NCBI GenBank assembly: GCA_034439715.1
Contig: JAWXAY010000010.1
Span: 1 to 64,000, forward strand
Origin: Pseudomonadota bacterium
Lineage (GTDB): Bacteria > Bdellovibrionota > Bdellovibrionia > Bdellovibrionales > SG-bin7
Direction: 5' to 3'
Length of the DNA: 64,000 nucleotides
Shown: positions 24,362 to 62,253 of the stretch, piece after piece
Layout of the letters: every line of letters starts with the position of its first letter
Numbering within the stretch: the stretch's first letter is position 1
Translations under genes and position numbers: made by a program
The notes under the pieces: generated by a model
Database searches by the model: none
Seen by the model: the letters and a program-made list of their open reading frames with translations, nothing else
Told to the model about the DNA's origin: nothing

Positions 24362-24861
24362 CGACCCTCAGGTTTACCAGGAGCTCGGGTGATCGGCGTA
24401 TTTAATCCAGGAGTAGGCGCATCCTCGCTTTCCGATTTTAGCCCAGAATGTTCACCAACAACTCGAATGGCGCTAGAAAGTTTTTCGTCGACAATAGAAT
24501 TTCGTCTTAAGACTTCGTTCATTTGAATCAAGCGCATAGTGACGGTTCTGGTAATTCCCATAAACCATTTGGGAACCTCTTTAAGCTGTTGATCGATCGC
24601 CGACTTTTCAATTTTAATCGTGGTAACCTTTGTCAGAGCAACAGCGTTGGCCGAATGGGGCATGGTAGCAAGCAATGAAAGCTCGCCAATATATTCACCT
24701 GAGTTTACGAGAGCTAGTGGTATTTTTCTGTTCTCATTATCCATTTTGAAAATCTCAACTTGACCCTCTTTAATGATGTACAAACAAGTTGCCGCCTGCT
24801 TCTCGGTTAATAAATAATCTCCTGGCTTAAATTTTACTATTGTGGATTTTGGGTCTGCCAT
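24358..24861 (-). CDS. Cyclic nucleotide-binding domain protein
   Basis: cNMP-binding beta-barrel pattern (GEYIGELSLL...A.A); overlaps argS start. Confidence 0.6.
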   Translation of the reverse strand: MADPKSTIVKFKPGDYLLTEKQAATCLYIIKEGQVEIFKMDNENRKIPLALVNSGEYIGELSLLATMPHSANAVALTKVTTIKIEKSAIDQQLKEVPKWFMGITRTVTMRLIQMNEVLRRNSIVDEKLSSAIRVVGEHSGLKSESEDAPTPGLNTPITRAPGKPEGR

Positions 24862-25734: not shown

Positions 25735-26466
25735 TTACATTTTCATGATAACCGAGATCGCGCCGCCAAATGCGCCAAGTTCAGAATTTGGACAATTGGG
25801 GTGAAGCTCTTTGCCCTTAGCTGCACCATGACAGCTCAAACAATTAGAGCCATAGTACTCGGGTATGATGTAACGAGCTTGGTTTTTTTCGGCTTGAACT
25901 TCAAAGTAGCCTTTGTTTTTCTCCCAGCCTTTTGTGGCAATCATTTCGTTCATGATTTTTCTTTCCCAGTCGTCAGCTTTGTTCTTGGGATTAATAAGAC
26001 AGTCGTCGGTAACGGTCAAACGTACCTCGTATTTTCCGCTACTTGTTGCTTTAAGTTTTTGACCAATTTCACGAGCAAACCGAAACGGTAAAAGTTTGTT
26101 GGGGTAGTGTTTTGACGCCGCCCAAGTTTCTTTAAAACCGTCGGCAAATGCTTTTGTAAATACGGTGTCAATGGAGTCTTTTAGATTTTTTGTAGCCTCA
26201 TTTGTAATATCAATTTTGATGCCAGTGGCTTCTAAATACTTTCTATCAACGGCCTTTTGTATTCCAGCCATATCAAGTCCGGCATCTTTTGGGTTGGTCT
26301 GCATGCTTTTGATATTATCTGCTACCACTGCACGTGCTGAGCGAAAAATTTTTGTGAGCGTTTTGGCGGTTTCTTCGTCAGCTACACCAAAGGCTGGCGA
26401 AGCAAAGCCGACCAGTACTAAAGTCATTCCTATTTTGAGAAAGTATGAAGAATTTAATAAAATCAT
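25735..26466 (-). CDS. c-type haem (CxxCH) DUF3365/Tll0287-like sensor protein
   Basis: Signal peptide; single CLSCHG motif near C-terminus; start may be at internal Met (26427). Confidence 0.5.
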   Translation of the reverse strand: MILLNSSYFLKIGMTLVLVGFASPAFGVADEETAKTLTKIFRSARAVVADNIKSMQTNPKDAGLDMAGIQKAVDRKYLEATGIKIDITNEATKNLKDSIDTVFTKAFADGFKETWAASKHYPNKLLPFRFAREIGQKLKATSSGKYEVRLTVTDDCLINPKNKADDWERKIMNEMIATKGWEKNKGYFEVQAEKNQARYIIPEYYGSNCLSCHGAAKGKELHPNCPNSELGAFGGAISVIMKM

Positions 26467-26635: not shown

Positions 26636-27148
26636 GTGAGTGAAGACATAAAACAACTCCAAAGGGATGGAAACGAAAGTTCTGTTAATGACGAAAACAT
26701 TAATAATAAGTACCTTCTTTTTCGCCTTGGAGAAGAGCTTTATGGCACCCCTTTGTTGGGAGTACGCGAAGTGGTTGAACCTCAGGCCCCAAAGCCAATT
26801 CCCAATACGGCAAAACACTTTTCGGGAGTCATCAATATTCGTGGAGAAATTGTGGGAGTATTAGACTTGAGAACCAGGTTTAATCATAATGCAGAGACCG
26901 GAGTTAATATGGCGCTCATGGTTTTTAGTACCGACGGCGGCCCGATGGCAGGGTTGGTAGATCGAGTGGAGTCGGTTATAAGTCTTTCAGAAAAAGAAAT
27001 CGAACGCAATCCCAACATAGGAATCGAAATTCTCCGTGAAGCGCTGATTGGAGTCGGCAAGTACAACAAGCATCTTATTACGTTGATTGATTTACACAAA
27101 ATATTACAAGCACATAGTTCAGAGAATAACAAAAAATTAACAGGTTGA
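26636..27148 (+). CDS. cheW: Chemotaxis coupling protein CheW
   Basis: CheW domain pattern (YLLFRLGEELYG...GVINIRGEIVGVLDLR); GTG start. Confidence 0.75.
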   Translation: MSEDIKQLQRDGNESSVNDENINNKYLLFRLGEELYGTPLLGVREVVEPQAPKPIPNTAKHFSGVINIRGEIVGVLDLRTRFNHNAETGVNMALMVFSTDGGPMAGLVDRVESVISLSEKEIERNPNIGIEILREALIGVGKYNKHLITLIDLHKILQAHSSENNKKLTG

Positions 27149-27170
27149 TAGGCATTCAGAGGGAGCGGTA

Positions 27171-29396: not shown

Positions 29397-29405
29397 TCAG
29401 GTCTT

Positions 29406-30230
29406 ATGGGCGTTTTAGCATTAAAGCCAGAAGAAAAAGAGGAGATCTTTGAAATTATCGAAAAGATCACGGGCACTTATCAGCAGGGTAAGTACCGTCG
29501 TAAAATTTTGGCAACTAATGTAGCCCGGCGGATTACAGCTGCGGGCTTTGATAATTTAGAGGAATATCTCAAGTACACTTGGTCTAACAAAAGTGAGATG
29601 GCAGAGTTTGTATCGGCACTGACCATTCACACAACAAATTGGTTTCGTGAAAACAAACATTACATCCGACTTGAAGACCACTTGGTTAAAGGGGGATTCA
29701 AACTTAGTAACGAAAAATTCAAACTCTTAAGTGCGGCGTCCTCGAGCGGTGAGGAGGCCTACTCATTTGGATTAGTCTTAGAGCACTTTCGAAATATGGT
29801 GCCTGGATTTGATTATGAAATCGTCGGTCGTGATATTGACCCGATCAGTGTGGCCGCAGCTAACAGGGGTATTTACAAAATTAACGATGACATTGCCAAA
29901 ATCAAAAGTGAATTTCAGAGATTTCTTCTTAAAGGCTCTGGTAAAACCAGTGGGTTTTTTACACTCGATAAAGAAATTAGAGACAGAACTCGATTTGAGG
30001 TTAGAAGTTTAACCGAACTCCAGCCAGACAACGAAGAACAGTTTGACTGGGTTGTGTGTCGAAATGTCCTTATATATTTCAAACCTGATGACGTTGACGT
30101 TATCATCCGCCGCATTCTCGCGAAGGTAAAACCAAAAGGAATGCTAGTCCTAGGTTCTGCAGAGGCCATTGACCCGCAAAAATTTGGGTTATCAGCAGCG
30201 GGTACCTCTTGTTATTTCCGCAAACTTTAA
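29406..30230 (+). CDS. cheR: Chemotaxis protein methyltransferase CheR
   Basis: IHTTNWFRE, SAM-binding SSGEEAYS and VCRNVLIYF motifs. Confidence 0.8.
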   Translation: MGVLALKPEEKEEIFEIIEKITGTYQQGKYRRKILATNVARRITAAGFDNLEEYLKYTWSNKSEMAEFVSALTIHTTNWFRENKHYIRLEDHLVKGGFKLSNEKFKLLSAASSSGEEAYSFGLVLEHFRNMVPGFDYEIVGRDIDPISVAAANRGIYKINDDIAKIKSEFQRFLLKGSGKTSGFFTLDKEIRDRTRFEVRSLTELQPDNEEQFDWVVCRNVLIYFKPDDVDVIIRRILAKVKPKGMLVLGSAEAIDPQKFGLSAAGTSCYFRKL

Positions 30231-48470: not shown

Positions 48471-49686
48471 AAAAGAAATTAACGAGATACGGGAAATGTT
48501 TCCGGCACTGAAGCAAAAAGTGCGTGGTCAGAATTTGGTTTATCTCGACTCCGCCGCAACGGCACTCAAGCCACTAAGTGTGTCTCAGGCCATTTTTGAC
48601 TTTGATTCGGTTGAAGCTTCTAACGTGCATCGCGGGGCCCATTACTTGAGTGGAAAAGCTACCGAGCGTTTTGAGGGAACCCGAGACTTGGTTAAACAGT
48701 TTTTAAACGCAGGGTCCGCGGATGAAATTATATTTACCTCTGGTACCACGGAGGGCATCAATCTTGTGGCGAATTCTTTTGTTTCTACCTTTTGCCAGTC
48801 CGAGGATGAAATCGTAGTGACGGAGATGGAGCACCACTCGAATTTTGTGCCCTGGCAAAAAATAGCTAAAGAAAAAAATCTTAAGTTTAAGGTTATTCCG
48901 GTCAAGATGTCGGGAGAACTGGACCTCGAAATGGCTAAAAAAATCATTACCGATAAAACAAAAATAGTCGCGCTTTCCTATGTTTCAAATGTTTTGGGAA
49001 ATATAAACCCCATAAAAAAAATAATTGCACTCGCTAAAGCTAGTGGAGCAAAAACTTTAATCGATGCCGCCCAAGCGGTGCCCGCTTTTGCTATAGATGT
49101 TCAAGATCTTGACTGTGATTTTTTAGTTTTCTCGGCGCACAAACTTTATGGCCCATTTGGTGTCGGGGTTTTATACGGGAGAAAAAAAATTTTACAGGAA
49201 ATGTCTCCTTGGAAGTCGGGTGGCGGCATGATAGATAGTGTCACCTCTCAAGGAAGTACCTATGCAGATGTTCCTAATCGATTTGAGGCGGGTACGCCAA
49301 ATATTTCAGGTGTGATAGGGCTCGGTGTCGCTCTAAATTTTGTAAGAATCCTTGGCTATGCTAATATTTCGGAATATGAAGGTCAGTTGCACTCATATCT
49401 TCTTGATAGAATTAGTGACCTTAAAAGTATTAATGTTTACGGAGAGACCGAAAATAAAGTTGGCATCATTGGCTTTAATATGATTTCTGCACATGCTTCT
49501 GACGTCGGATCTATTCTCGATCAACTGGGCATAGCAGTTCGCTCGGGACATCATTGTGCACAACCGCTCATGACTCGATTTGCAGTACCGGCAATGGTTC
49601 GATGTTCGCTCGGCGTTTACAATACGACAGACGAGATAGATCGCTTCGTCCAGGGACTCAACAAGGCACAGGAGATGCTATTATGA
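48460..49686 (+). CDS. sufS: Cysteine desulfurase SufS
   Basis: PLP-dependent aminotransferase class V pattern; SGHHCAQP near C-terminus. Confidence 0.9.
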   Translation: MWSEKEINEIREMFPALKQKVRGQNLVYLDSAATALKPLSVSQAIFDFDSVEASNVHRGAHYLSGKATERFEGTRDLVKQFLNAGSADEIIFTSGTTEGINLVANSFVSTFCQSEDEIVVTEMEHHSNFVPWQKIAKEKNLKFKVIPVKMSGELDLEMAKKIITDKTKIVALSYVSNVLGNINPIKKIIALAKASGAKTLIDAAQAVPAFAIDVQDLDCDFLVFSAHKLYGPFGVGVLYGRKKILQEMSPWKSGGGMIDSVTSQGSTYADVPNRFEAGTPNISGVIGLGVALNFVRILGYANISEYEGQLHSYLLDRISDLKSINVYGETENKVGIIGFNMISAHASDVGSILDQLGIAVRSGHHCAQPLMTRFAVPAMVRCSLGVYNTTDEIDRFVQGLNKAQEMLL

Positions 49687-50246
49687 ATCCTCAAGAATTT
49701 TTAATTAGAGTTCAGCCTACGCCTAACCCCCAGGCCTTAAAATTTATTATGAATGAAGTGGTGAAGACAGAGGGTAAGGCTACATTTACTTCAGCGGTTG
49801 AGGCGAATGGAATCCAAATGGCGCGTGACATCTTTGAATTGAACACAGTAAATCAGTTACATTTCTTCGATAACTTTATAACGGTTACGTTTAATGACGG
49901 CATTTATCCCTCTGAACAAGAGGAACTCGTCATAGCGATTGTTCGCAGAGATATTTTAGTTCACGATGCTAATTTTAAGGTAGAGGCTGACCTAAAGCCC
50001 AGCCGAATTCACCTTTCCCCCGAAATACAGAAAGTCGAATCCATTCTGGACAGAACTATTCGGCCTGGCCTTCAAGGTGATGGTGGTGACATAGAAGTTA
50101 TTTCTTATAAAGACCATCATCTAGAAGTAAGGTATGAGGGGGCTTGTGGAACGTGTCCAAGTTCGACGACCGGGACTTTAATGGCCATTGAATCGATTTT
50201 GCGTGATGAGTTTGATCCGCAAATTTCGGTCACGACTGTTCTCTAA
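49683..50246 (+). CDS. NifU/Nfu-type Fe-S scaffold/carrier
   Basis: Nfu N-domain plus C-terminal CGTCPSS; ATG overlapping sufS stop (ATGA). Confidence 0.7.
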   Translation: MNPQEFLIRVQPTPNPQALKFIMNEVVKTEGKATFTSAVEANGIQMARDIFELNTVNQLHFFDNFITVTFNDGIYPSEQEELVIAIVRRDILVHDANFKVEADLKPSRIHLSPEIQKVESILDRTIRPGLQGDGGDIEVISYKDHHLEVRYEGACGTCPSSTTGTLMAIESILRDEFDPQISVTTVL

Positions 50247-50360
50247 TTGGCATTTTTAGAATGGTCTCTGGTCTAGGATTTATTAAGACAAATTCTATCT
50301 ACGAATTCTATCGACGAATTCGATCGTGAGCGTTAAGCTTATAGATGAGCTTAGGAATAT

Positions 50361-52139
50361 ATGAAAGATTCAACTGCATTAAAATGGACCGTTGAAAAGC
50401 GGCCGATATATGAATTTCTAAGAAAGAGTCCCTATTTTGTGGGCGTTTCTGACGAGATGATCACCAAGCTGGCTAACGTCTGTGATCTCCAACATTTTTT
50501 TCCTAATTCAAAAATAATGACCGAAGGCGAAATAAATAACAAAGTTTATTTTGTGCTAGTTGGTCGAGTAAAAGTGGCCGTCAGTGGAGAAACTATCGCC
50601 AACATGGGGCGCGAAGGCGATATCTTCGGTGAGATGAGTGTTATCAGCCATGAGCCAGTATCTGCGACGATTATTGCTGAAACTCCCGTAGAACTTTTTT
50701 CTCTTGATTTTAAGACGCTCAAAGAAAAACTAGGGGCGGATTCAGTTTTCATAGAAAATGGACTATTTCGAATTTTTTCACAACTATTAACCCGTAAGTT
50801 GGCACTCACCAATGAAAAGGCGGAGAGTTTCGAAAAAGTAAATCGTGATTTAACGAGTACGCACACAAAACTTCAAAAAGTGACTGATATTCTTGAAAGC
50901 TCGCTGGATGAAAGAAGTAAAATATTAAATGAACAGTCTGAGGAACTTGTAAAGCGAAATGCCGAACTAGAGCGTAGCCAAAGAAAGAGTGAAGAGCTTA
51001 TGCAGTCAAAGGATCTTTCGTTTGCCAAGCTCAAATCTTTCTACGAACAGCACCTTCCGACTCTGCAGTCGCAGCTTGGAAAGCTTGAAAAAATAGGCGA
51101 TGAACAACTTAAATCATCAATTGAACGGGTCGTTGTAGAAATTGAAGATCTTATGGAGATGATGGCTCCTGTATCAGAGTGGGGCGAGGTCAGTGATGCA
51201 CTAAAATTAAAACAGGTTTTGTTTGTGCACCCAGATCGCAAACAGCAAGTCTATGCGCGCTTGGCCTGGGCAGCAGCAGTTGGGGGCTTAGAATATGCCA
51301 CTGACGAAGCGTCACTCCGCGAAAAATTAGCAGCCCAAATGTATGACATTATTTGTGTTGATCTCAGCTTTATTAGTCAAATTGAAGGAATTCATCAGCT
51401 CTATCCGCGCGCCGAAATTGTGTTACTAATTTCAAGTGAAATTAAAGATAACCTAGGAAAAATTTTAGACCTGCCCTACGTTACTAAACTTTTATCAATA
51501 ACATTTGAAGATAGAAACCTTACGATCAAGAATTTTCATACAACTCTGAGCAAAATCGCCAACAAAGATTATTTTGGTATTAAAAAATACCTACATTCTC
51601 AAGTGGAAATTAAACGTCAAAAGGTAAATGCCAGTGATGAGCGTTCGAGACTCATTGAAAATATGTCTAGTTACTTTAGAGATTTAGGTGTTAGAGCCTC
51701 GATCGTTGATCGTGCACGCACGGCTGCTGAAGAACTCCTGATGAACATTATATACGATGCGCCGGTTGATTCTGGCGGTAAGCCTCTTTATAATCAGCTT
51801 CCGAGAACGACTGCTGTACAACTTCGGGCTCACGAGTGTGGTGAATTTCTTTATGCCTGCGATGGAGTAATGCTCGCCGTATCATCTCTTGACCCATTTG
51901 GGAGCTTGAGTCGTGACACGGTTTTAAAGTATCTTGAAAGCTGTTATTCGAATAAGGCGGGAACGCTCAACGTTGCAAAAGGTGGGGCCGGTCGCGGCTT
52001 ATTTATGTTAGTGCAAAATGCAGATATAGTGATTTTTAATGTTAAAAAGGGCATCCAGACAGAAGTCATCTGTTTGTTCAGTGTGGATATGGCGTCTGCC
52101 AACAAAACGAATTCTCCCTCTATTCACCTCTTTTTCTAA
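50361..52139 (+). CDS. cNMP-binding domain protein with coiled coil and C-terminal HATPase_c-like (anti-sigma kinase-like) domain
   Basis: cNMP motif GDIFGEMSVI; C-terminal AEELLMNIIYDA ... GAGRGLFM. Confidence 0.5.
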   Translation: MKDSTALKWTVEKRPIYEFLRKSPYFVGVSDEMITKLANVCDLQHFFPNSKIMTEGEINNKVYFVLVGRVKVAVSGETIANMGREGDIFGEMSVISHEPVSATIIAETPVELFSLDFKTLKEKLGADSVFIENGLFRIFSQLLTRKLALTNEKAESFEKVNRDLTSTHTKLQKVTDILESSLDERSKILNEQSEELVKRNAELERSQRKSEELMQSKDLSFAKLKSFYEQHLPTLQSQLGKLEKIGDEQLKSSIERVVVEIEDLMEMMAPVSEWGEVSDALKLKQVLFVHPDRKQQVYARLAWAAAVGGLEYATDEASLREKLAAQMYDIICVDLSFISQIEGIHQLYPRAEIVLLISSEIKDNLGKILDLPYVTKLLSITFEDRNLTIKNFHTTLSKIANKDYFGIKKYLHSQVEIKRQKVNASDERSRLIENMSSYFRDLGVRASIVDRARTAAEELLMNIIYDAPVDSGGKPLYNQLPRTTAVQLRAHECGEFLYACDGVMLAVSSLDPFGSLSRDTVLKYLESCYSNKAGTLNVAKGGAGRGLFMLVQNADIVIFNVKKGIQTEVICLFSVDMASANKTNSPSIHLFF

Positions 52140-52185
52140 TTTTGAGACATTTAAATAAAATCAATGATTTGCCGAAAAGTCGAGT

Positions 52186-54078
52186 GTGATGATTAAGAAG
52201 ACCGAGTCTGCTCGTTATTCGGAAGACGAGAAAGAAATTATTTTTTCCTATGCTGAAAGATTGACGGGCTCGTGCCAACGGGGCCGGTACAGAAAAGAAA
52301 TTCTTCTTAATAACGTTGAAAAAAGAATGCACGCCCGCGGTCTTACAAATCTAAGTCACTACTTGAAGTTTGCGACGACCGATGCCGAAGAAAAAAAATA
52401 TTTGCTTTCAGCGTTGACCATTCATACAACGGCTTGGTTTAGAGAGCCAAGCCACTATAGTAAAATTGAAAAGCTTGTTATCGAAAATATGTCAGAATTT
52501 GAGGAGAGGCCCTTAACAATGATGTGTGCAGCCTGCTCAACCGGTGAGGAAGTCTATTCGTTTGGGCTTGTATTTGAATCTATTCGCGCTTCATTTCCAA
52601 AGTTCAATTACAAAATCGTGGGCTTTGACATTGATCCCATCAGTGTCGAAAAGGGCCAAAAAGCAGTCTATCCCGCAGAGGACATTCTAAAATCGATATC
52701 TGAAAAATTCACTAAGTTTCTGTTGGTGGGCAGCGGTAAGACCGAAGGCCGCTTTACTCTTGACAAAGAAATTCGTAGCCGCTGTGAGTTCACGGCCTTT
52801 AGCTTGAAAGACGAGTGGCCCAGCACCGACCTGTTTGATATAGTTACCTGTCGAAATGCACTTATATATTTCGAGCCCAACGTTATGGCAACGATCGTAA
52901 ATAATTTAACTAAGCTCATGAAGCCCAACGGTCTTTTTGTTGTTGGCACCAGTGATTTTATTGATGCGCCAAAAAATAAACTTCATGACTTGGGCAAATC
53001 CATTTATGTCTTTGAGGGCGAGGCGCCACTTTCAAAATTTGCGAACGGCCCCAAAATACTAGTTGTGGATGACTCATCAACTATTAGGAGTATGTTAACA
53101 AAACTTTTGATTAAGTCGGGTTTTCGAGTTGATGCTGTGGAGTCAGCTGCAGAGGCTTCTGAGTTTTTACGTAAGAATAATGTGAACCTAATAACTCTGG
53201 ATCTCCATATGCCCGGCATGGATGGTCAGACATGGTTAAGTCAGCAAAGGGCCAGTGGACTAAAAACGCCCGTGGTAATCATTAGCGGCGCCAATCCAAC
53301 TGAAGCAAAAAGCGTGTTACATGCACTAGGCAGTGGAGCGCAAGATTACTTCGAAAAAGAAAAACTCATGGAGGCGCCTAAAACAATTGTGCAGTCGCTT
53401 TTTGCGATAATTGAAAGTTATGATAAGAGAAAAAATAGAAAGGTAAACATCGAAGCTAGCAAAGACGAGAGCGTAGCCTTAAAACTTACTAAAAAACCAC
53501 CTCGTAGGCGCCCGGACTTAATTTTACTGGGGGCAAGCACGGGAGGGACCGAGGCACTTAAAATAATATTAGATAAAATGCCAATCAATTCGCCACCCAT
53601 TATCGTGGTACAACATATTAGTAGTGGATTCGCAAAAGCCTTTCACGAAAAACTGGCGTCAAGCTCGGGGTTAGTAATGGCCGAAGCTGCGCCCGGTGTT
53701 CAACTAAAACCCGGGCATCTTTACATGGCTCACGGTGATTATCATATCGAACTTACTAAAAAGTATGACGAACTTTTCGTTAAAAATTCGTATTTGGCTC
53801 CCATAAATGGCATCAGGCCAAGCATTGATCATTTATTTAGATCGGCCGCAGTAACAGACTCTCATTTAATGGCTGGAATTCTTACCGGCATGGGGCGAGA
53901 TGGCGCACAAGGGTTGTTAGAGATAAAGAAAAAGGGTGGGATTACATTAGCCCAGGACGAAGACTCATGTGTAGTTTTTGGCATGCCCAAAGTAGCGATT
54001 GGCATTAACGCCGCAAGTATAGTGGCAAATCTCGTAGAAATTCGCGCTGAAATAAAGGCGGCAATTGCCGGCGAGTAA
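52186..54078 (+). CDS. CheR methyltransferase - REC - CheB methylesterase fusion protein
   Basis: N-terminal CheR (IHTTAWFRE, TGEEVYS, TCRNALIYF), REC (VVDDSSTIR ... LDLHMPGMDG), CheB (GASTGG, IVVQHISSGFA, GMGRDG). Confidence 0.8.
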   Translation: MMIKKTESARYSEDEKEIIFSYAERLTGSCQRGRYRKEILLNNVEKRMHARGLTNLSHYLKFATTDAEEKKYLLSALTIHTTAWFREPSHYSKIEKLVIENMSEFEERPLTMMCAACSTGEEVYSFGLVFESIRASFPKFNYKIVGFDIDPISVEKGQKAVYPAEDILKSISEKFTKFLLVGSGKTEGRFTLDKEIRSRCEFTAFSLKDEWPSTDLFDIVTCRNALIYFEPNVMATIVNNLTKLMKPNGLFVVGTSDFIDAPKNKLHDLGKSIYVFEGEAPLSKFANGPKILVVDDSSTIRSMLTKLLIKSGFRVDAVESAAEASEFLRKNNVNLITLDLHMPGMDGQTWLSQQRASGLKTPVVIISGANPTEAKSVLHALGSGAQDYFEKEKLMEAPKTIVQSLFAIIESYDKRKNRKVNIEASKDESVALKLTKKPPRRRPDLILLGASTGGTEALKIILDKMPINSPPIIVVQHISSGFAKAFHEKLASSSGLVMAEAAPGVQLKPGHLYMAHGDYHIELTKKYDELFVKNSYLAPINGIRPSIDHLFRSAAVTDSHLMAGILTGMGRDGAQGLLEIKKKGGITLAQDEDSCVVFGMPKVAIGINAASIVANLVEIRAEIKAAIAGE

Positions 54079-54285: not shown

Positions 54286-55536
54286 ATGAAAGTTGGTCTG
54301 GAAGCAATAGCTTTTGATATTCCAAAATTTTATGTCGACATGACAGAGTTAGCGCATTACCGAAGCATTGATCCCGCTAAGTTCACTAAAGGTCTTGGCC
54401 AACTAGAAATGTCTGTGGCCTCGCCCTGTGAGGACACAGTAACTTTGGCGGCGGGTGCAGCCATTAAACTGATGCACGGCTTTAATATTGATAAAGAATC
54501 AATCGGACTTTGTGTCGTGGGCACTGAGACTCCTATAGATCAAAGTAAGCCCATAGCTTCTCACATCCACGAGATTTTAGGACTCCCTAAAAATTGTCGC
54601 GTTTTTGAAACAAAACACGCTTGTTACGGGGCGACGGCAGCCCTTGCCATGGCTACAGATTGGATTCTATCGGGACGGGCGCAGGGCAAAAAAGCAATAA
54701 TAATAGCAAGTGATATTGCTCGCTACGGGTTGAAAACTGCAGGCGAACCCACGCAAGGTGCTGGTGCCGTGGCGATGCTGATTTCAGACAACCCAAAATT
54801 GCTAGAGTTAGAAACCAATTATGTTGGTAACTACTCAGAACAGGTTATGGATTTTTGGCGACCAACATACTCTAAAGAAGCTTTTGCTGATGGTCATTTT
54901 TCAATTCAATGTTACTTAACGGCCTTAGCAGGTTCCTACGACGCCTACAGAGAAAGTTTTACGAAACAGCATGCCGATGCTCCTGAAATGCTAGCCAGTC
55001 GTTTTGCCGCTTGTTTGTATCACGTGCCGTTTGTCAAAATGGCGAATAAAGCTCACCACAAATTAATCGAACACGAAACGAAAACTAAAATAGAAAAAGA
55101 TGACCCACGCATGAATGACGTCATCAAGGACTTTAATGAGCGGGTGGCTGGTAATTTAAATCTCAACGCCAGGATTGGAAATGTATATACTGGCTCTCTG
55201 TATCTTTCGCTTTTTAACTTCCTGGAACAGAATAGCGCCAAAAACGTGGGCCGCGCGATTAGTCTATTTAGTTATGGCAGCGGCTGCACCTCAGAATTTT
55301 TTAGCGGAATTGTACAGCCCGGCGCAGAATTAGCTTTACAAAAAGTTTCGTCGCAGTCGGCATTGAATTCCCGCATTCGCATTCCCGTTGATCATTATGA
55401 AAAAATGTTGAATGCATCGGCCGAATCCGACCAAAATAATGTCGAGGTTTCTGATCCTAAAACTTGGCATATTACAGGTCCGGTACTTTATTTAGGAAAT
55501 AAAGACCACAAACGACAGTATGCCGTTAATCAGTGA
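54286..55536 (+). CDS. mvaS: Hydroxymethylglutaryl-CoA synthase
   Basis: N-terminal EAIAFDIPKFYVDM, catalytic Cys region (ETKHACYGATAAL), 416 aa. Confidence 0.8.
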   Translation: MKVGLEAIAFDIPKFYVDMTELAHYRSIDPAKFTKGLGQLEMSVASPCEDTVTLAAGAAIKLMHGFNIDKESIGLCVVGTETPIDQSKPIASHIHEILGLPKNCRVFETKHACYGATAALAMATDWILSGRAQGKKAIIIASDIARYGLKTAGEPTQGAGAVAMLISDNPKLLELETNYVGNYSEQVMDFWRPTYSKEAFADGHFSIQCYLTALAGSYDAYRESFTKQHADAPEMLASRFAACLYHVPFVKMANKAHHKLIEHETKTKIEKDDPRMNDVIKDFNERVAGNLNLNARIGNVYTGSLYLSLFNFLEQNSAKNVGRAISLFSYGSGCTSEFFSGIVQPGAELALQKVSSQSALNSRIRIPVDHYEKMLNASAESDQNNVEVSDPKTWHITGPVLYLGNKDHKRQYAVNQ

Positions 55537-56344
55537 ACCGACCTAATACCGGCGATAAGAGCAATAATATTACCGGTATTGAGGCAAATAAAACCACAAT
55601 AAACGCACCTGCGGGCAGATCCCAGATGTGACTTAGGGTCATACCAATAAAGCTTAAAGCAAATCCTAGAGCCCATCCAAAAAAAAGGCGAGCACGAATA
55701 CTATTAAAAAACAAGGTTCCCACGACAGCGGGTACAATTAAATAAGCGAATACCTGCAGTACTCCGGCGACGCTCACAGAGGACGTAATGACTACGCCGA
55801 ATAATACATAAAATAGAAAGTCCCAATACCCCGTCTTTTCTGTTTTTTTGCCAAATGAGGCCGCAATGAGTTGTCTTCTAAAAACAAAATGAATACCAGC
55901 AACGATGCTATAAATGATTCCAGTTTTTATGACGTCAAACCAAGTTACCCACAATACCTGACCTACTAGTAGATCTTTAATGTGCTCTGCTCCATGCGCA
56001 ATGCGGTCAACGACAAGAACTACAGCAGCAGAAGCTAACGCATAGACGATGCCGATGATTGCTTCTTGTGAAAATAATTTTTCGTGACGTCTTGCCAATG
56101 CAAAAAGGCCGGCGACGGCGAATGTGCTAAATAGAGAAATAAAATAGGTCCCAGCCGAATTGTGTTCAAAGCCAAATAATATCGCGATCGTGGCTCCAAA
56201 AGCAGCTACTTGCGCTAGACTGAGATCCACAAAAATCACCCCACGTGCCAGCACATGTAATCCCAAATAACAATGAATTCCGGCCAAGATTAGACACATC
56301 ACAAACGGTGCAGCTAGAAATGTTAGGGCGTTCACCAGCTCCAT
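55526..56344 (-). CDS. Metal (Zn/Mn) ABC transporter permease, ZnuB/MntB family
   Basis: ABC-3 permease pattern, 272 aa. Confidence 0.75.
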   Translation of the reverse strand: MELVNALTFLAAPFVMCLILAGIHCYLGLHVLARGVIFVDLSLAQVAAFGATIAILFGFEHNSAGTYFISLFSTFAVAGLFALARRHEKLFSQEAIIGIVYALASAAVVLVVDRIAHGAEHIKDLLVGQVLWVTWFDVIKTGIIYSIVAGIHFVFRRQLIAASFGKKTEKTGYWDFLFYVLFGVVITSSVSVAGVLQVFAYLIVPAVVGTLFFNSIRARLFFGWALGFALSFIGMTLSHIWDLPAGAFIVVLFASIPVILLLLSPVLGRFTD

Positions 56345-56367
56345 TATTTATTCCTCTATTCATTTCT

Positions 56368-57291
56368 CTAGTTATTATTTTGATCCACAATGCCTTTTAC
56401 TAAGTTTTCGTACAAGTCGTCTATTGTAGCAATTCCCTCGGCGCCATCCACAGCGACAGGAACGGTTGCCGATCGAATCGAGGGAATTGTTTGTTTAATT
56501 TTTTCTGTCACCGTTGGGGCAAAATAATTTTCTACGAGTATCAATGAAATTTGGTCTTTCTTGATGGTATCTATTACTTTAAGAATATGTGCGCTGGTTG
56601 GAGGAATTCCCGGCTTTGGTTCTAGGATTACGGGATTTTCAATTTGAAATCGGTCTAAAAAATAAGTGAGCGTTCTGTGATAGGTGACAGCTTTTTTTAT
56701 ACCAGCCGCTTGAATTCTCTGTTGCCACTCTTTGGTTTTCTTTTGCATTCTCAATTGCAGAGCGAGCGCATTTTTTTGATACTCAGCAGTATTCGCGCTG
56801 TCAAGCTCACCTAGTCGCTCAGCAATTTTCAAGGCGATTTCACCAGTTCTGATAGGATCTAAAGTGACATGTGGATTACCAAATGGGTGTACATCACCAT
56901 CGGCTCTGCTGATTCGACCGATGGGTATTTCTAACGGTTTTACAAAGGTTCCCACCTCGAGGTAGCCTTTTTGGCCCTGATTTATTTTTGGGTTCCTCGC
57001 TCCGCGGATAAGGCTGGGTAGCCAACCCACTTCTAAATCCAGTCCAATTGCAATCAGCAGATCAGCTTTGCTTACTTTAGTCATATAAGAAGGCTTGGCT
57101 TCTATAAAGTGAGGGTCCTGCGTGCCCTTAGCAATTGAGTTTACGTTAATGAATTTTTGTCCAACTTCATTTGTGATTGCGCGTAAGTCAGTAGTGGTTG
57201 TGACTACGTTAAGTTCAGCCAGAGCGCTAACTGCTGATAAATTGAAAGTACTCAATATAACGGGAATTAAAATAGAGTTTAATAAACGCAT
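56368..57291 (-). CDS. Metal ABC transporter substrate-binding protein, ZnuA/TroA family
   Basis: Signal peptide at internal Met (MRLLNSILIP...); TroA-like pattern with His-rich segment. Confidence 0.7.
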   Translation of the reverse strand: MRLLNSILIPVILSTFNLSAVSALAELNVVTTTTDLRAITNEVGQKFINVNSIAKGTQDPHFIEAKPSYMTKVSKADLLIAIGLDLEVGWLPSLIRGARNPKINQGQKGYLEVGTFVKPLEIPIGRISRADGDVHPFGNPHVTLDPIRTGEIALKIAERLGELDSANTAEYQKNALALQLRMQKKTKEWQQRIQAAGIKKAVTYHRTLTYFLDRFQIENPVILEPKPGIPPTSAHILKVIDTIKKDQISLILVENYFAPTVTEKIKQTIPSIRSATVPVAVDGAEGIATIDDLYENLVKGIVDQNNN

Positions 57292-57304
57292 TTTGAACTC
57301 CCCA

Positions 57305-58375
57305 TTAATAGGTATGCGCTGGGTGCACACCGATACTAATGTTATACTGAAGAGCCACCACATGATCCACATTGTTTTTGCCTTGTGTGTTGATGCGATT
57401 ATACTGCATCCTGAATCCCGAAAATTCAGAGGGTAAGAATCCCAAGAGAATACTTTGCTTATTCTGAAATGGGATAACATCCGGATGAGGTAATCCCACA
57501 TACTCATATCGTAGTTGCAGCCACCAACGCTCTGCAAATTGGTATTGTATCCAAGTAGCGACCCCGCCCAATTTTTCTGTAGTCTCTGCGGTAGTGGGTT
57601 CTGTAAATCCCCTTCGATTTGCCTGTAAATATTCGGTCGACCATATTAGGGCGTGATACTTACCACCTTTTTCAGGTCTCCATTTAGAAGTCAGATCGAT
57701 GCCAAAGATAGAACTGTTTCTGTCGAGCTGGTTACGTCCTTCTGCCGCCGATAGACCAAGCTCAAGGGTTAAGTCTGAACTCAAATCCCAAAGATTTTTA
57801 ATGTGTACCAACCCACCCGAATGGCGAGATTTAGGACTATTAAAGATGGTTTCATTGCTGAGACTAAACGCCTGCAACACTATCTCCGAATACCATTTAG
57901 CAGGTATCAAAATAGCTGCTGAAACACCTGATTCATTGATGCCCTCGTCACCCAATAACGTCTGGTGAATTAATGGGGCGTCGACAAAAGGAAAAGCATG
58001 TGCGTGCAACTCATTGTGCCTTCCCAGTGCCAATTTAAATTTGCCGGCCTTTAAGATCATATGTGGTAGTGAAATCGTCTCAATAAAAACGTCTTCGGGT
58101 TCGATGACAAACCCGGGATCACCGGCTTCTTGGCCGACCGCCAATAGTACTTTAGCTTTCGTATAAGGATCGACGTCAGCCGTAAATTGTATTTCAGCTT
58201 CTTGCAGAGAAAATCCATTGTGGGGAACATCTAAGCGATCATTTGAAATGTCAGTGCCTGACAAAAATAATCCTAAAAAATTTGCGCTGATGTCAGGATT
58301 AAAGGCTTTTGTGTTTTGTGCAAGTGCGCCGAGTGGAAATGCGCAAAAAATTAAAATAGGTAACAGTTTAGTCAT
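57305..58375 (-). CDS. Outer-membrane beta-barrel protein (hypothetical)
   Basis: Signal peptide MTKLLPILIFCAFPLGALA; Gly/aromatic alternating pattern. Confidence 0.45.
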   Translation of the reverse strand: MTKLLPILIFCAFPLGALAQNTKAFNPDISANFLGLFLSGTDISNDRLDVPHNGFSLQEAEIQFTADVDPYTKAKVLLAVGQEAGDPGFVIEPEDVFIETISLPHMILKAGKFKLALGRHNELHAHAFPFVDAPLIHQTLLGDEGINESGVSAAILIPAKWYSEIVLQAFSLSNETIFNSPKSRHSGGLVHIKNLWDLSSDLTLELGLSAAEGRNQLDRNSSIFGIDLTSKWRPEKGGKYHALIWSTEYLQANRRGFTEPTTAETTEKLGGVATWIQYQFAERWWLQLRYEYVGLPHPDVIPFQNKQSILLGFLPSEFSGFRMQYNRINTQGKNNVDHVVALQYNISIGVHPAHTY

Positions 58376-58425
58376 AGGGGCTCCAAATAAATTTTGGTAA
58401 TTAAAAAAATAGGAACTAAAAAACA

Positions 58426-58698
58426 TTAGGAGACGTGTGGAGGTGCCCGGGCAGGTGAGTTAAGGACTATTAAGGGCGACAATATTATACGCTCCAACTT
58501 AGGAAGCAAATAGGTCTCAATTTGAATAGCTATTAAGAAAATAATTGGATCACAAGTGATTGTTATTGTGTTTGATTGAACTTCGCAAATTGGACAGTGA
58601 TGCTTTTCATTGTTAGACCCTTGAGGTTCATGGCTAAAGTCGTGGAACTGTAAGGCCAGAAGTGCAACAATTATGATTAAAGGCAACAATTTACGCAT
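58426..58698 (-). CDS. Small secreted His/Cys-rich protein
   Basis: Signal peptide; FHDFSHEPQGSNNEKHHCPICE segment. Confidence 0.35.
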   Translation of the reverse strand: MRKLLPLIIIVALLALQFHDFSHEPQGSNNEKHHCPICEVQSNTITITCDPIIFLIAIQIETYLLPKLERIILSPLIVLNSPARAPPHVS

Positions 58699-58712
58699 CA
58701 GAGGAGAGTATA

Positions 58713-58738
58713 GTGACTTTCAAAAAAAAGTCACTAGA
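58713..58738. promoter_or_regulatory. Perfect palindrome TAGTGACTTT-caaaaa-AAAGTCACTA upstream of small His-rich gene / zinc-uptake cluster
   Basis: Read directly from the sequence. Confidence 0.4.
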
Positions 58739-58785
58739 AGAAAATACTCTTCGTTTAATAGGCGTGCTTATGAGCAATGCTGTTC

Positions 58786-59739
58786 CTATTCTAGGTATCT
58801 CTGCATTTGATTATACCCTAATCTCGCTATAGCGGCCCTTTGATTGCAGTGTCGACAGAGTAGTCTTAGGTTTTTGATGTCTGAAGACCCACCCAAGCTT
58901 AGCGGGTTTAGATGATCAATCTCCAAGGCATATTCGGAACTACAATTTTGGCATTTTCCTGCAGCTTTACGCCAAACATCTTTTTTTAATTTTATAGAAA
59001 TATATTGTCTCGTGGGTTTTGTCGTTGTGATCACCGCTACTTTCGGCGCCGGCGGTATGTTTTTGGGCAAATCGATTTTCTGTTTCTTTCCTATTTTAAG
59101 TTCTCGGCGCAAAGGATCCAGTTCATTTAATGCCATTTCACAAAGTTCATTGATAAGGTCTGAGGTATTTAGGCCCGGCTTTCGATGGGCAATCAGGCCC
59201 TTAATTCGATTCATCTTAGAAAGTAAATTCTGATCAGCCGAAAATCTCACCTCAGTAACTTCTGGCGTAACTTGTCTGAATTTTTCTACGACGGGTTTGG
59301 GCGGAACAGAAGATCTCGATATTAAAATTTTCTCCCCTTCACGACTGGATTTGTTCGAAAGTTCCTCTAAAACTTTAAACTTTTCATGAGGACTCATGGC
59401 AGACAGTTTTTCTTCTTGGTTAAAAAACGTTTTAGCTTGAACAACATTACTTAAACTCAATTCGCCTCTTGAAATTTTTTCTTCAATTGTTGGAATCTCT
59501 GTAATCATACGCATGGCCACAATTCTTCGCTGGGCCTGGCTTTCTGAATACTTAAGAGCCTGCATGCAGTACGAAAACAAACTGGGAAATCCCAGAGCAG
59601 AATAGAGTCTTCGTCTTTGGATTTCCTGCAAGTGACGCAGGATCTCGGTTAAGACTTCGCGCTCGGATGTCACCAGTGATTTTGTTTTTTCAAGTAACTC
59701 TTTGTCAGATAAACTATTTAAGTTCATAAAGCCCCCCAT
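58786..59739 (-). CDS. HNH endonuclease domain protein
   Basis: C-terminal CQNCSSEYALEIDHLNPLSLGG...NLRLLCRHCN HNH motif. Confidence 0.7.
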   Translation of the reverse strand: MGGFMNLNSLSDKELLEKTKSLVTSEREVLTEILRHLQEIQRRRLYSALGFPSLFSYCMQALKYSESQAQRRIVAMRMITEIPTIEEKISRGELSLSNVVQAKTFFNQEEKLSAMSPHEKFKVLEELSNKSSREGEKILISRSSVPPKPVVEKFRQVTPEVTEVRFSADQNLLSKMNRIKGLIAHRKPGLNTSDLINELCEMALNELDPLRRELKIGKKQKIDLPKNIPPAPKVAVITTTKPTRQYISIKLKKDVWRKAAGKCQNCSSEYALEIDHLNPLSLGGSSDIKNLRLLCRHCNQRAAIARLGYNQMQRYLE

Positions 59740-60001: not shown

Positions 60002-60469
60002 TCAGTGAATGATTTTTAGGCCCTTAAGACTGTAAGGCACTTGGGATTTCATGGCCTTTGTTGACTGAGCGCCAACTTTATCTGATTCAGGAGGCGTCAA
60101 AATTTGGGTTGTCCCATACTTTACCCCATCCTGAAGTTCGTAAACAGAAAAAACCACTTTCCACTGACTTGATTTAAATCGCACCACGATTTCAGAGTGT
60201 ACCGTGGTGCCGGCCTTCACGTCGTTATGGTTGACAGTTGTGGTGCCCTGCACCAGTTCCACTTCGGGGGGTAAAATCCAGTCCATGGTAAGCTCGTTAT
60301 AATCTTGTGCCACGGTAGCCTTGCCGGTTAATGTGATGTCGAGGTTTGGATCATCGTATTTTGTTTGAGACGGAATTATTTCAAGTGCCAGCGGGCCCTT
60401 ACTTTTAGAAATTGCACCATTTGAAAAAAGCAATAGTCCTACTAAAAAAAAATTTGAAATTAAGGACAT
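60002..60469 (-). CDS. Small secreted protein (hypothetical), downstream of metalloprotease
   Basis: Signal peptide; 155 aa. Confidence 0.4.
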   Translation of the reverse strand: MSLISNFFLVGLLLFSNGAISKSKGPLALEIIPSQTKYDDPNLDITLTGKATVAQDYNELTMDWILPPEVELVQGTTTVNHNDVKAGTTVHSEIVVRFKSSQWKVVFSVYELQDGVKYGTTQILTPPESDKVGAQSTKAMKSQVPYSLKGLKIIH

Positions 60470-62253
60470 ACTTGTGCTCCTCCCGCGGTCAAGGTGTAGT
60501 TAATGCTCCCCGCGCCAGTATAATATTGCACGACCACTAAATAATGTCCAATTGCTAAGGAGGGCGTTAACGATACACTTCCATTATCAGTAGTGCTGTC
60601 GTTAAAAAGGACCATGTCTGAAACATCAAGTTCAATGGGGCTATAGTTATTAAAGAGATTGTGGTCGCGTCTCATAATAAATAAATCCATATCTTCGCTG
60701 CCTGGAGAGGAATAATTGAGGGTAAAATTTATAGTACCATTTGATGTTTTGATATAATCCCAATAATCAAAAGAGATATAGGCGCCACTTCCATTAGTGG
60801 CGGTAGTAGTACTTTTAGGAATTGCAGTAGTACACGCGCCCCCTTGAACCTTTGTGGCGTAGCCTGTGCGATTAGCGACCTGATTCTCACTACCTAAAAG
60901 TGCAGTGTAGCTGGTGCTGCCAGAAAATGCCGCGTGAACTTCTTGAAAAAGTCCGAAAGACCTAAAGTTTACGCTTAATGTTTTTAATGCTGTAAATGCG
61001 GCCCACAGTTGATCAAAAGTGCCGGCGCCATTTACAGTATCAAAGCTATCGTCCCCAGCATTTGTGGCGTCTACGGCGTCATAGAGTGATCTCGTAATGC
61101 CAAACTCTCTAAAGTTTCCTTCTCCCGCCTCGTTACCTTTATCAAAACAACCAGAACCGGGTATGTTTTGAGTTTGGCAGATATATTCTGTGCTCACATT
61201 AAAGTATATCTGCGGAGACCCGCTTATGTTTCCGACAGTGTCGCGGTAAAAAGAAACTCCAGTAACTGCCGCTTGTAAAAAATTTGCCCAACCTTCGCTC
61301 CACGCTAGCCGTGCATCAATCGCCGTTGTGCCCGAATGGCCACCGCCGGGAGAGTCAGACGTCGAATAGTGAGCTTCGATAAAATGGCCATACTCGTGAA
61401 TAATAATTGAAGAATCAAAATGATCGGTATCCGCACTGTCGGTATCGCCGCTAATGCCACCCAAGATATATAAATAATCTTGGCTAGGCACATAAAAACT
61501 TAAGCCACTGCCATTATCACCAAGATAAGAGTTGGGATTAAAACCCTTTGTCCAATATACGTTTACCTTAAAGGTAGGTGTATAAGGTGTGCAGGTTAGA
61601 CTTTGGCTCTCAAAAGATCCGGTCATGCTGGCACACGAAGCTGTTTTAGTGACCAAGTATTGGTTGGTGTCTAAGATTTTATCTAAAATGTTAAAAGCAC
61701 CGCCCTCAAGAGTTCCGGTAGCAGGGGCAGTAATTGTACCAACGCTTTTTGAGGAATCAGGCGTAAATGTTGTTGAAATAGTATAGTGGGTATTGCTTGT
61801 CGGATTATTAAGTATGCTAGCTTTATACTGTGAATTATTGGCACGTGAGCTTATTTTCACGGTCCATGTCTCGCCAGTCGTGTTTGCCTGAAAAGAAAAA
61901 TTCCCGCTGCCGTCAGTTTCTGCACATTGAGCAATAGCACCGGCTTCGTTATAAACGACGACTTCGGCAAAGCGAATGGGTTTTGGTGTTGGATCAACTC
62001 CACCCAGGCCGCTCGAAGAGGATGTGCGAAATTGGTACTTGGCTGTACCAGTAATAGTTGCCGGCGAAGAATAGGTGATAGAATTTGAACAATAATTCGC
62101 CTCAGCTCTCACCGAAACTGAAGTATCAGGCCGGTTTTTGCCACACCCTGAGTAAATCAAAACTATCGCGAGCGGGAGTAATGGAATGAGTAAAAATTGG
62201 CGGCCAATCATCATGATCTTATCGGCAAAAGAACCACAAAAATTAAGTCTCAT
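60460..62253 (-). CDS. Secreted zinc metalloprotease (HExxH) with C-terminal beta-rich domain
   Basis: IIIHEYGHFIEAHY; signal or lipoprotein-like N-terminus; Thr/Ser/Gly-rich. Confidence 0.55.
   Translation of the reverse strand: MRLNFCGSFADKIMMIGRQFLLIPLLPLAIVLIYSGCGKNRPDTSVSVRAEANYCSNSITYSSPATITGTAKYQFRTSSSSGLGGVDPTPKPIRFAEVVVYNEAGAIAQCAETDGSGNFSFQANTTGETWTVKISSRANNSQYKASILNNPTSNTHYTISTTFTPDSSKSVGTITAPATGTLEGGAFNILDKILDTNQYLVTKTASCASMTGSFESQSLTCTPYTPTFKVNVYWTKGFNPNSYLGDNGSGLSFYVPSQDYLYILGGISGDTDSADTDHFDSSIIIHEYGHFIEAHYSTSDSPGGGHSGTTAIDARLAWSEGWANFLQAAVTGVSFYRDTVGNISGSPQIYFNVSTEYICQTQNIPGSGCFDKGNEAGEGNFREFGITRSLYDAVDATNAGDDSFDTVNGAGTFDQLWAAFTALKTLSVNFRSFGLFQEVHAAFSGSTSYTALLGSENQVANRTGYATKVQGGACTTAIPKSTTTATNGSGAYISFDYWDYIKTSNGTINFTLNYSSPGSEDMDLFIMRRDHNLFNNYSPIELDVSDMVLFNDSTTDNGSVSLTPSLAIGHYLVVVQYYTGAGSINYTLTAGGAQVCP

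Follow-up and report, generated by a model that had tools for sequence, protein, structure and literature searches.

The window, a stretch of bacterial DNA of 64,000 nucleotides, encodes a CheR methyltransferase, a receiver (REC) domain and a CheB methylesterase in one gene, ORF-B, whose product most likely (a probability of about 0.8) is a member of a large conserved family of CheR-REC-CheB adaptation enzymes; the window copy is an orphan, and the protein encoded directly upstream, ORF-A, is separate from it. This fused form is the norm in a whole bacterial lineage and no peculiarity of the source genome. In bacterial sensory adaptation, CheR and CheB work against each other, and it is the ratio of the two that determines the adapted kinase activity. 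The features discussed are collected in Table 1.

Table 1. Features of the window, with the evidence for each (aa, amino acid residues of the encoded protein)
Feature	Position	Strand	Evidence
Remnant che cluster: CheW, MCP, stand-alone CheR	26636-30230	+	Pfam
CheW	26636-27148	+	Pfam
MCP	27171-29396	+	Pfam
Stand-alone CheR	29406-30230	+	Pfam
ORF-A, four-part signalling protein, 592 aa	50361-52139	+	ORF list, Pfam, AF2 model, alignment
ORF-A: cNMP-binding-type beta-barrel, aa 1-125	50361-50735	+	Pfam
ORF-A: helical/coiled-coil linker, aa 127-282	50739-51206	+	AF2 secondary structure
ORF-A: degenerate receiver-fold domain (pseudo-receiver), aa 285-400	51213-51560	+	
ORF-A: SpoIIAB/RsbW-type GHKL (HATPase_c_2-like) domain, aa 401-592	51561-52136	+	
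ORF-A/ORF-B intergenic gap, 46 bp	52140-52185	+	Sequence, site scan
ORF-B, CheR-REC-CheB single-chain adaptation enzyme	52186-54078	+	ORF list, Pfam, P0001 match
ORF-B: CheR methyltransferase part, aa 1-275	52186-53010	+	Pfam, 1AF7 alignment, motif invariance
ORF-B: REC domain, aa 290-392	53053-53361	+	Pfam, 1A2O alignment, invariance in fusions
ORF-B: CheB methylesterase catalytic domain, aa 444-626	53515-54063	+	Pfam, 1A2O and 1CHD alignment

The fusion protein and its family

The first-pass annotation of this DNA described a 630-aa open reading frame with CheR, receiver and CheB in a single polypeptide, 46 bp behind the upstream gene. The frame and the gap were both found as described, ORF-B lies on the same strand as ORF-A, and its domains are backed by Pfam. 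Translation from GTG 52186 gives 630 residues and from ATG 52189, one codon later, 629 residues; the 629-aa NCBI protein P0001 is 100% identical to ORF-B. Upstream, the start is limited by an in-frame TGA at 52165-52167. ORF-B is flanked by ORF-A on one side and by an HMG-CoA synthase gene on the other.

The three Pfam matches are far above chance, with E-values from 1e-21 to 1e-51. CheR (PF01739) matches residues 81-268 (131.3 bits against a cut-off of 27, 3.8e-38), Response_reg residues 291-392 (75.8 bits against 30.2, 3.8e-21) and CheB_methylest (PF01339) residues 446-623 (175.6 bits against 24, 1e-51), the last over the full profile, 1-174. A fourth profile proposed for this check, CheR_N (PF03705), gave no match in ORF-B at E<=0.01. 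It is carried by two ORF-B homologues, and conservation among fusions is 90% or higher for the N-terminal residues T27, G28, Q31, G33, R36, N43 and R47. ORF-B also scored below the NCBIfam cut-offs, clearly for the CheR equivalog PRK10611 (111.7 bits against 435) and closely for the CheB subfamily PRK00742 (265.3 bits against 293). Together with the undetected CheR_N, these scores indicate that ORF-B is a divergent relative of the textbook enzymes.

The likeness to those enzymes is evident in alignments. The CheR part consists of a putative N-terminal helical region followed by a SAM-binding domain with a beta-subdomain; residues 35-273 are collinear with residues 35-270 of Salmonella CheR (1AF7), the alignment beginning at residue 35 in both proteins. 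Its motifs FRE 85-87, G120/E122, D148/D150 and N224..F229 align to the Salmonella motifs (FFRE-type Arg, GEE, DID and RNxxIYF), and we take their roles to be the catalytic and SAM-binding ones known in general for CheR. Residues 290-628 are collinear with Salmonella CheB (1A2O), with triad and receiver residues conserved. The receiver, which stands immediately upstream of the esterase, has D295/D296, the phospho-acceptor D339, S367 and K391, and it aligns to D10/D11/D56/K109 of 1A2O. In the esterase, the motifs GASTGG (449-454), QHISSG (476-481) and GMGRDG (568-573) contain S451, H477 and D572, presumably equivalent to Ser164, His190 and Asp286 of CheB. The Ser/His/Asp region is thus intact as first described: the quoted motifs are present and their catalytic residues unsubstituted relative to 1A2O. 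Across 58 aligned fusions that are 40-66% identical, the triad, receiver residues D296, D339 and K391, and all the CheR motifs named above are invariant (58/58), which argues that both halves are under purifying selection.

The same architecture is widespread in relatives, a distribution whose examination had been suggested earlier. Members were defined as single open reading frames of about 600-670 aa with collinear CheR, REC and CheB, a description that includes ORF-B (630 aa). Clustering of the database at 90% identity gives more than 120 clusters with this collinear architecture, and all three Pfam domains occur in 120 of the best 120. At 50% identity, approximately 100 of the 150 best representatives have 590-665 aa and a single collinear match over residues ~10-625. 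The members with a taxonomic label are mostly Bdellovibrionota/Oligoflexia MAGs.

The CheR and CheB of Salmonella and E. coli (1AF7, 1A2O) have the same folds as ORF-B, and their cheR-cheB gene order equals its domain order. Shared features are the SAM-binding and catalytic motifs of CheR, the Asp-Asp/phospho-Asp/Ser/Lys set of the receiver and the Ser-His-Asp triad. Unlike the Salmonella pair, ORF-B is a single chain in which ~15 residues link CheR to the receiver, and its sequence identity to those enzymes is low. Other fusions are known from annotation. KEGG orthology has a cheBR entry, and the commonly annotated cheBR type consists of a CheB part without REC, then CheR, followed by PAS and histidine-kinase domains; ORF-B differs from it in its CheR-REC-CheB order and in having no further domains. 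The annotated CheB/CheR fusions resemble ORF-B in uniting methylesterase and methyltransferase in one gene. By annotation name, these include the cheBR genes counted in Geobacter genomes (PMC8396549) and the CheB-CheR hybrid RC1_3878 of Rhodospirillum centenum (PMC2890560). A biochemical study of such fusions was not found in the literature, where CheRB/CheBR proteins turned up in passing mentions only, and no enzymatic or phosphotransfer data were found for any member with the CheR-REC-CheB architecture.

Genomic settings and proposed mechanism

Four relatives have the fusion gene within a che cluster, and in none of these clusters is cheR or cheB present as a gene of its own. Three of the clusters have CheA plus CheW and/or MCPs. 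They are arranged as CheA-CheW-fusion with an MCP nearby (L009), as MCP-CheW-CheA divergent from fusion-CheY (L091), and as CheW-CheA divergent from CheY-CheX-MCP-MCP-fusion (L092). In the fourth (L093), the fusion stands beside CheX and two MCPs only, with no CheA or CheW within the 7-kb flanks. ORF-B itself is outside any che cluster, and the copies in L006, L008 and L010 are likewise orphans. The order suf operon, nifU, fusion is kept in L006/L007 and L008, and the relatives at 57-59% identity have the fusion gene immediately behind nifU, without ORF-A. ORF-B is thus an orphan paralogue, and related genomes preserve its place directly downstream of the suf Fe-S operon. The possibility that a CheA is hidden elsewhere in the 64-kb window was rejected, as tblastn found no homologue there.

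The window does contain a remnant che cluster, at some distance from ORF-B. Its CheW and MCP, which share 79% and 66% identity, respectively, with the proteins of the SG_bin7 cluster, are candidates for the receptor partners of ORF-B; the MCP has no NWETF-like pentapeptide at its C-terminus. The stand-alone CheR gene of this cluster is real, and its product shares 45% identity with the CheR part of ORF-B, which bears out the paralogy noticed at first reading. Its best matches in a local BLAST are fusions, and it is 61-65% identical to residues 1-272 of these ~630-aa proteins. A remnant REC-CheB behind it was considered and rejected, since nothing recognisable follows the stop codon.

One gene encodes both predicted enzymes, so that methylation and demethylation of receptors would reside in one protein, as had been proposed from the sequence. 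By analogy with canonical CheR and CheB, the N-terminal half would use SAM to methylate glutamates of methyl-accepting chemotaxis proteins. A CheA kinase from another part of the genome would phosphorylate Asp339 of the central receiver, and phosphorylation would relieve the inhibition of the C-terminal Ser451/His477/Asp572 methylesterase, which would then remove the methyl groups. The fusion may set the opposing activities at 1:1 and bring both to the receptor array together. With CheR and CheB at 1:1 in one chain and the receiver in the centre, such proteins offer a test of how robust adaptation is to expression noise, and the family allows the study of one phosphorylation site governing two antagonistic activities.

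It is unlikely, in our estimate, that one half is instead a pseudo-enzyme (for example, a CheR part that only tethers the esterase) or that the protein has a non-motility role on a substrate other than the window MCP. The orphan position away from any CheA, the stand-alone CheR retained by the window che cluster and the unreached NCBIfam equivalog cut-offs all point in that direction, but the CheR motifs and CheB triad are invariant in the 58 members, ORF-B included, and orphan copies at the same position are conserved at full length with 57-66% identity.

ORF-A and its relation to the fusion

The upstream gene had been described as combining a cNMP-binding domain, a coiled coil and a GHKL-like C-terminus. 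All three parts are recognised by Pfam or in the AF2 model; the description had overlooked the pseudo-receiver between the last two. Pfam cNMP_binding matches residues 44-124 (53.8 bits against a cut-off of 27.5), and the CNB fold is present. In its pocket, Glu91 is kept, and the position of the phosphate-binding Arg is occupied by Val100; this Arg is absent in 25 of 25 aligned family members, which have V, C, A, S or I instead. The AF2 model places two linker helices at 127-245 and 248-282, with a break at 245-248. The invariant columns of the family alignment include no residue of this linker and no conserved His in it.

In the same model, the C-terminus has a GHKL-type fold closest to the SpoIIAB/RsbW subclass. 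The seven residues of E458xxxN462, D511xxG514 and G542xG544xG546 are invariant in 33 sequences; they were matched to the N-box, the G1 Asp and the G2 glycines by inspecting the motifs rather than by superposing structures. The fold looks competent for ATP binding. Pfam HATPase_c_2 gave no match to ORF-A even at E<=10 and only E 0.028 for the short homologue P0160, and a profile search of the domain against PDB sequences returned no relative. N-box, G1-like and G2 motifs are shared with the partner-switching Ser/Thr kinases SpoIIAB, RsbW and SiaB and with Leptospira SenB/LvrC (1L0O, 6M36, 6KKO, 9QIH). Like ORF-A, 9QIH joins a receiver to a kinase-like domain; what sets ORF-A apart from those proteins is the cNMP-type domain at its N-terminus and ~155 residues of coiled coil. 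An assignment as histidine kinase was rejected: Pfam found no HisKA match, the fold prefers the SpoIIAB class, and the family alignment has no invariant or nearly invariant His anywhere.

Relatives of the SpoIIAB-like C-terminal part are encoded on at least 465 metagenomic stretches, and the full-length four-part type is found in 32 of the 80 metagenomic loci kept. A general clustering of the neighbours in 32 loci, not aimed at STAS or sigma-factor genes, gave no conserved adjoining signalling gene; the common neighbours are housekeeping genes only. ORF-A thus belongs to a sizeable family without Pfam annotation, which may merit a study of its own.

Two further proposals concern the regulation of ORF-B. 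Going by domain order and adjacency, phosphorylation of its receiver could switch the protein from net methylation of receptors to net demethylation, which would make a push-pull integral-feedback element of one polypeptide; in addition, the SpoIIAB-like kinase ORF-A, co-transcribed with the fusion in this narrow lineage, could modulate it in response to a small ligand in its Arg-less cNMP-type pocket. We regard this as improbable. The second proposal, and that of the first-pass annotation, is that the two proteins form a joint unit: ORF-A would sense a cyclic nucleotide and thereby control how ORF-B methylates and demethylates receptors. The two genes share a strand, their 46-bp gap has no terminator-like and no promoter-like site in the site scan, the pair recurs in a 74%-identical relative (L005) with a TGATG stop/start overlap, and ORF-A has the kinase fold described above. 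These points are outweighed by the distribution of the pair and by the pocket. The adjacency occurs only here and in L005 and is missing in the next relatives, where nifU directly precedes the fusion. ORF-A homologues at 36-39% identity sit in unrelated contexts, beside lgt/lspA/ileS-like or rpmE-like genes (names read from ORF translations), and those in L001-L004 never adjoin che genes. CheR or CheB neighbours were found at 0 of the 80 metagenomic loci, 26 of which are of the full-length type with at least 2 kb downstream. The Arg that would bind the cyclic phosphate is missing throughout the aligned family, and kinases of the SpoIIAB type are known to act on STAS-like proteins and are not known to act on CheR or CheB. 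The cyclic-nucleotide-responsive adaptation module is accordingly very doubtful.

ORF-A is best regarded as a separate signalling protein; nothing shows joint work with the fusion. In a narrow lineage, its gene would have come to lie between nifU and the fusion gene by insertion, and there the two are probably co-transcribed. The pairing is recent and probably incidental. The value of the locus lies mostly in correction: the fusion is nothing exceptional for its lineage, and the apparent cNMP-controlled module probably came about by a chance gene insertion.

Origin of the fusion

CheB itself consists of REC plus esterase, so the cheR-cheB gene order matches the CheR-REC-CheB domain order. Since this gene order is widespread, loss of the cheR stop codon would be the simplest origin of the fusion. 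When genome contigs were scanned with the fusion alignment, the matches listed were for the most part neighbouring but separate cheR and cheB genes of other phyla. In 20 of 35 such unfused pairs, cheB continues the reading frame of cheR and only one stop codon separates the two. A single base error could therefore mimic a fusion, but the chance that ORF-B is an assembly or sequencing artefact, in which a lost stop or a frameshift joined separate cheR and cheB genes, is next to nil: an identical protein occurs on four contigs (NCBI, JGI, ENA and Logan), the architecture is continuous throughout the family at both clustering levels, and one related genome has three paralogous fusions, so that this explanation was rejected as effectively refuted.

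The CheR-receiver-CheB protein and its family

ORF-B, the fusion gene under study, starts with GTG and has ATG as the very next codon. A longer N-terminus is excluded because an in-frame TGA lies upstream of this start. The ATG version (629 aa) is 100% identical to a database protein, P0001, which is found on four contigs (NCBI, JGI, ENA, and Logan) and carries the public name "chemotaxis protein CheB". The first-pass annotation placed a CheR, a receiver, and a CheB in one polypeptide, and this architecture is borne out by three Pfam matches, all far over their cut-offs: CheR (aa 81–268, 131 bits), Response_reg (aa 291–392, 76 bits), and CheB_methylest (aa 446–623, 176 bits). Residues 290–628 are collinear with Salmonella CheB (1A2O), with the receiver residues (acidic pair D295/D296, phospho-acceptor D339, S367, and K391) and the esterase motifs GASTGG (S451), QH (H477), and GMGxDG (D572) retained, so the Ser/His/Asp region was correctly recognized. 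Residues 35–273 are collinear with residues 35–270 of Salmonella CheR (1AF7) in an alignment that spans the second half of the N-terminal helical domain, FFRE, GEE, DID, the beta-subdomain region, and CRNxxIYF. Pfam CheR_N was not matched at E ≤ 0.01, and the NCBIfam full-length models scored below their cut-offs for both CheB (265 vs. 293) and CheR (112 vs. 435). For these reasons, ORF-B is classed by sequence as related to the enterobacterial enzymes but divergent from them.

The architecture is widespread. In a search of 5.8 billion sequences, from which the best 120 clusters at 90% identity were taken, all 120 contained the same three Pfam domains in proteins of approximately 610–670 aa. 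Their taxon-labelled members were mostly Bdellovibrionota, Bdellovibrionales, Oligoflexia, Oligoflexales, Silvanigrellales, or Pseudobdellovibrionaceae MAGs. When 1.84 billion representatives at 50% identity were searched exhaustively with phmmer, 6,314 matches were obtained at E ≤ 1e-30, ordinary CheBs included. Approximately 100 of the best 150 were 590–665 aa long and matched in one collinear stretch over residues ~10–625; shorter proteins of ~480–550 aa gave two separate matching stretches, and those of 730–1050 aa contained extra sequence. Among 58 aligned fusions, 40–66% identical to ORF-B, the CheB triad, receiver residues D296/D339/K391, and CheR motifs R86, G120/E122, D148/D150, and N224–F229 were invariant, which argues that both halves are under purifying selection. 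Together with the breadth of the family, this invariance rules out, for practical purposes, a frameshift or lost-stop artefact. The fusion can thus be regarded as real and common, and ORF-B as unexceptional within a large, conserved, uncharacterised family of predicted single-chain adaptation enzymes.

Features discussed in the text, by position in the window
Feature	Coordinates	Strand	Size or remark
Gp49-like (DUF891) protein	19719–20168	−	
Small cNMP_binding protein	24358–24861	−	167 aa
Tll0287-like gene	25735–26466	−	haem-PAS-type sensor
CheW-MCP part of che remnant cluster	26636–29396		
Stand-alone CheR	29406–30230		part of CheW-MCP-CheR cluster
NifU/Nfu-like gene, mechanical ORF	49554–50246	+	230 aa from TTG
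Intergenic region upstream of ORF-A	50247–50360		
ORF-A	50361–52139	+	592 aa, ORF list
SpoIIAB-like domain of ORF-A	51561–52136		
In-frame TGA	52165–52167		
ORF-B	52186–54078	+	630 aa, ORF list
Four-gene block	55526–59739	−	
Overlapping gene pair	60002–62253	−	155 aa and 597 aa

Origin and genomic context of the fusion

Proteins commonly annotated as cheBR are ordered CheB-CheR, with PAS and kinase domains in addition, whereas the order in ORF-B is CheR-REC-CheB. Members of the ORF-B family are named "CheB/methyl-accepting protein methylase" by JGI. A "cheBR fusion" has been counted in Geobacter genomes (PMC8396549) and a "CheB-CheR hybrid" noted in R. centenum (PMC2890560), so fused CheB/CheR genes are already recognized in annotation. 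No experimental work on either of these or on the ORF-B family was found in the literature.

The domain order CheR-[REC-CheB] matches the gene order cheR-cheB, and a profile scan of genome contigs listed among its matches adjacent, unfused cheR-cheB pairs from many phyla. In 20 of the 35 such pairs tabulated from other phyla, the genes share a reading frame and only one stop lies between them. By sequence, such pairs are one point mutation from a CheR-REC-CheB fusion, and loss of one stop codon would be its simplest route of origin.

Fusion copies occur in several settings. The related MAG SG_bin7 has three paralogues, one of which (L009) lies in a Tll0287-like | CheA-CheW-fusion...MCP arrangement. 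Among more distant members, a fusion-CheY unit is divergent from MCP-CheW-CheA (L091), CheY-CheX-MCP-MCP-fusion is divergent from CheW-CheA (L092), and a third locus reads CheX-MCP...MCP-fusion (L093). Since none of these four clusters contains a separate cheR or cheB, the fusion is their predicted adaptation enzyme. Orphan copies also exist (L010). Orthologues of the window copy (57–59% identity) directly follow a suf operon, Rrf2-sufB-sufC-sufD-sufS-nifU, and the gene that comes after the fusion in L008 is HMG-CoA synthase, just as it is in the window.

The proposed paralogy of the stand-alone CheR to the CheR part of ORF-B holds, as the two are 45% identical. Its best matches are residues 1–272 of ~630-aa fusions (61–65% identity; P0012, P0017, P0011, P0020, and P0019), and the closest stand-alone CheRs in a large database reach ≤44%. 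The protein ends where the fusion linker begins, and no REC- or CheB-like sequence follows its stop codon. Its CheW-MCP-CheR cluster is syntenic with the SG_bin7 CheA-CheW-fusion...MCP region (CheW 79% and MCP 66% identical), with Tll0287-like on one side and Dus-ABC-ABC2 on the other in both genomes, and CheA, present at the SG_bin7 site, is absent. Because of this combination, the stand-alone CheR looks like what is left of a fusion after secondary loss of REC-CheB, in a cluster that also lost CheA. If so, ORF-B may provide the only predicted CheB activity of this genome stretch. The Tll0287-like gene and the che cluster are arranged divergently, as in L009, and two genes away from both lies the gene of a small protein that consists of a cNMP_binding domain (1.2e-20).

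ORF-A and its pairing with the fusion

The sole Pfam match in ORF-A, the gene upstream of ORF-B, is cNMP_binding (aa 44–124), in agreement with the first-pass annotation. An AF2 model built from 33 homologues (pLDDT 85.6) has four parts: a CNB beta-barrel (aa 1–125), a helix from 127 to 282 broken at 245–248, which fits the suggested coiled coil, a receiver-fold domain (aa 285–400), and a C-terminal alpha/beta domain. The GHKL/anti-sigma-kinase-like assignment of the C-terminus stands at the level of the fold, but no Pfam or PDB sequence profile detected this domain. It is SpoIIAB-like, and its family, which goes unrecognized by Pfam, has at least 465 metagenomic relatives; proteins of ~325 aa (P0160–P0167) consist of the pseudo-receiver and this domain only. 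No conserved signalling partner was seen near its relatives in metagenomic loci L094–L173. The receiver-like domain is degenerate, with Asp at the acceptor-equivalent position in only 10 of 30 homologues. In the cNMP pocket, Glu91 is retained and Val100 stands in place of the phosphate-binding Arg. As this position is V/C/A/S/I in 25/25 homologues, binding of cAMP or cGMP is doubtful.

The 46 bp gap to ORF-B is as described earlier, and a scan found no terminator-like site in it. Only one close relative, L005, shows the same adjacency: its ORF-A is 74% identical, the partial ORF that follows clearly encodes the fusion N-terminus, and the stop of one gene overlaps the start of the next in the sequence TGATG. 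The two genes are therefore likely co-transcribed in this lineage, judging from the gap and the overlap. The further proposal of a cyclic-nucleotide-responsive adaptation module is not supported, given the missing pocket Arg, the absence of ORF-A from the fusion site in the next relatives (57–59% identity, L006–L008), and the lack of CheR or CheB homologues in all 80 loci kept from the ≥465 relatives in the metagenome scan. Thirty-two of these loci are of the full-length type (26 with ≥2 kb downstream), and the only neighbours that they share resemble lgt, lspA, ileS, or rpmE, named from ORF translations. ORF-A homologues at 36–39% identity likewise lie amid unrelated genes. The link is lineage-specific and probably incidental; on the simplest reading, ORF-A would be an independent signalling gene recently inserted between nifU and the fusion gene.

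Upstream of ORF-A, the intergenic region has a short direct repeat (CTATCTACGAATTCTATCGACGAATTCGATCG), and no sigma-70-like promoter was called there. The preceding NifU/Nfu-like ORF overlaps sufS by ~130 bp; since its relatives are 186–187 aa long, translation probably begins at an internal ATG near 49680.

Other genes in the window

Between HMG-CoA synthase and a conserved gene pair lies a block encoding a ZnuB-like ABC-3 permease, a ZnuA-like binding protein, a 373-aa protein with no Pfam match, and an HNH endonuclease. It looks like an insertion, as the relative L008 does not have it. The overlapping pair has no Pfam match; L006 and L008 carry at the corresponding position a pair alike in size (152–154 aa and 564–605 aa), also with no Pfam match. 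The window also encodes a Gp49-like (DUF891) protein, from a family for which HigB-type toxin is the usual annotation.
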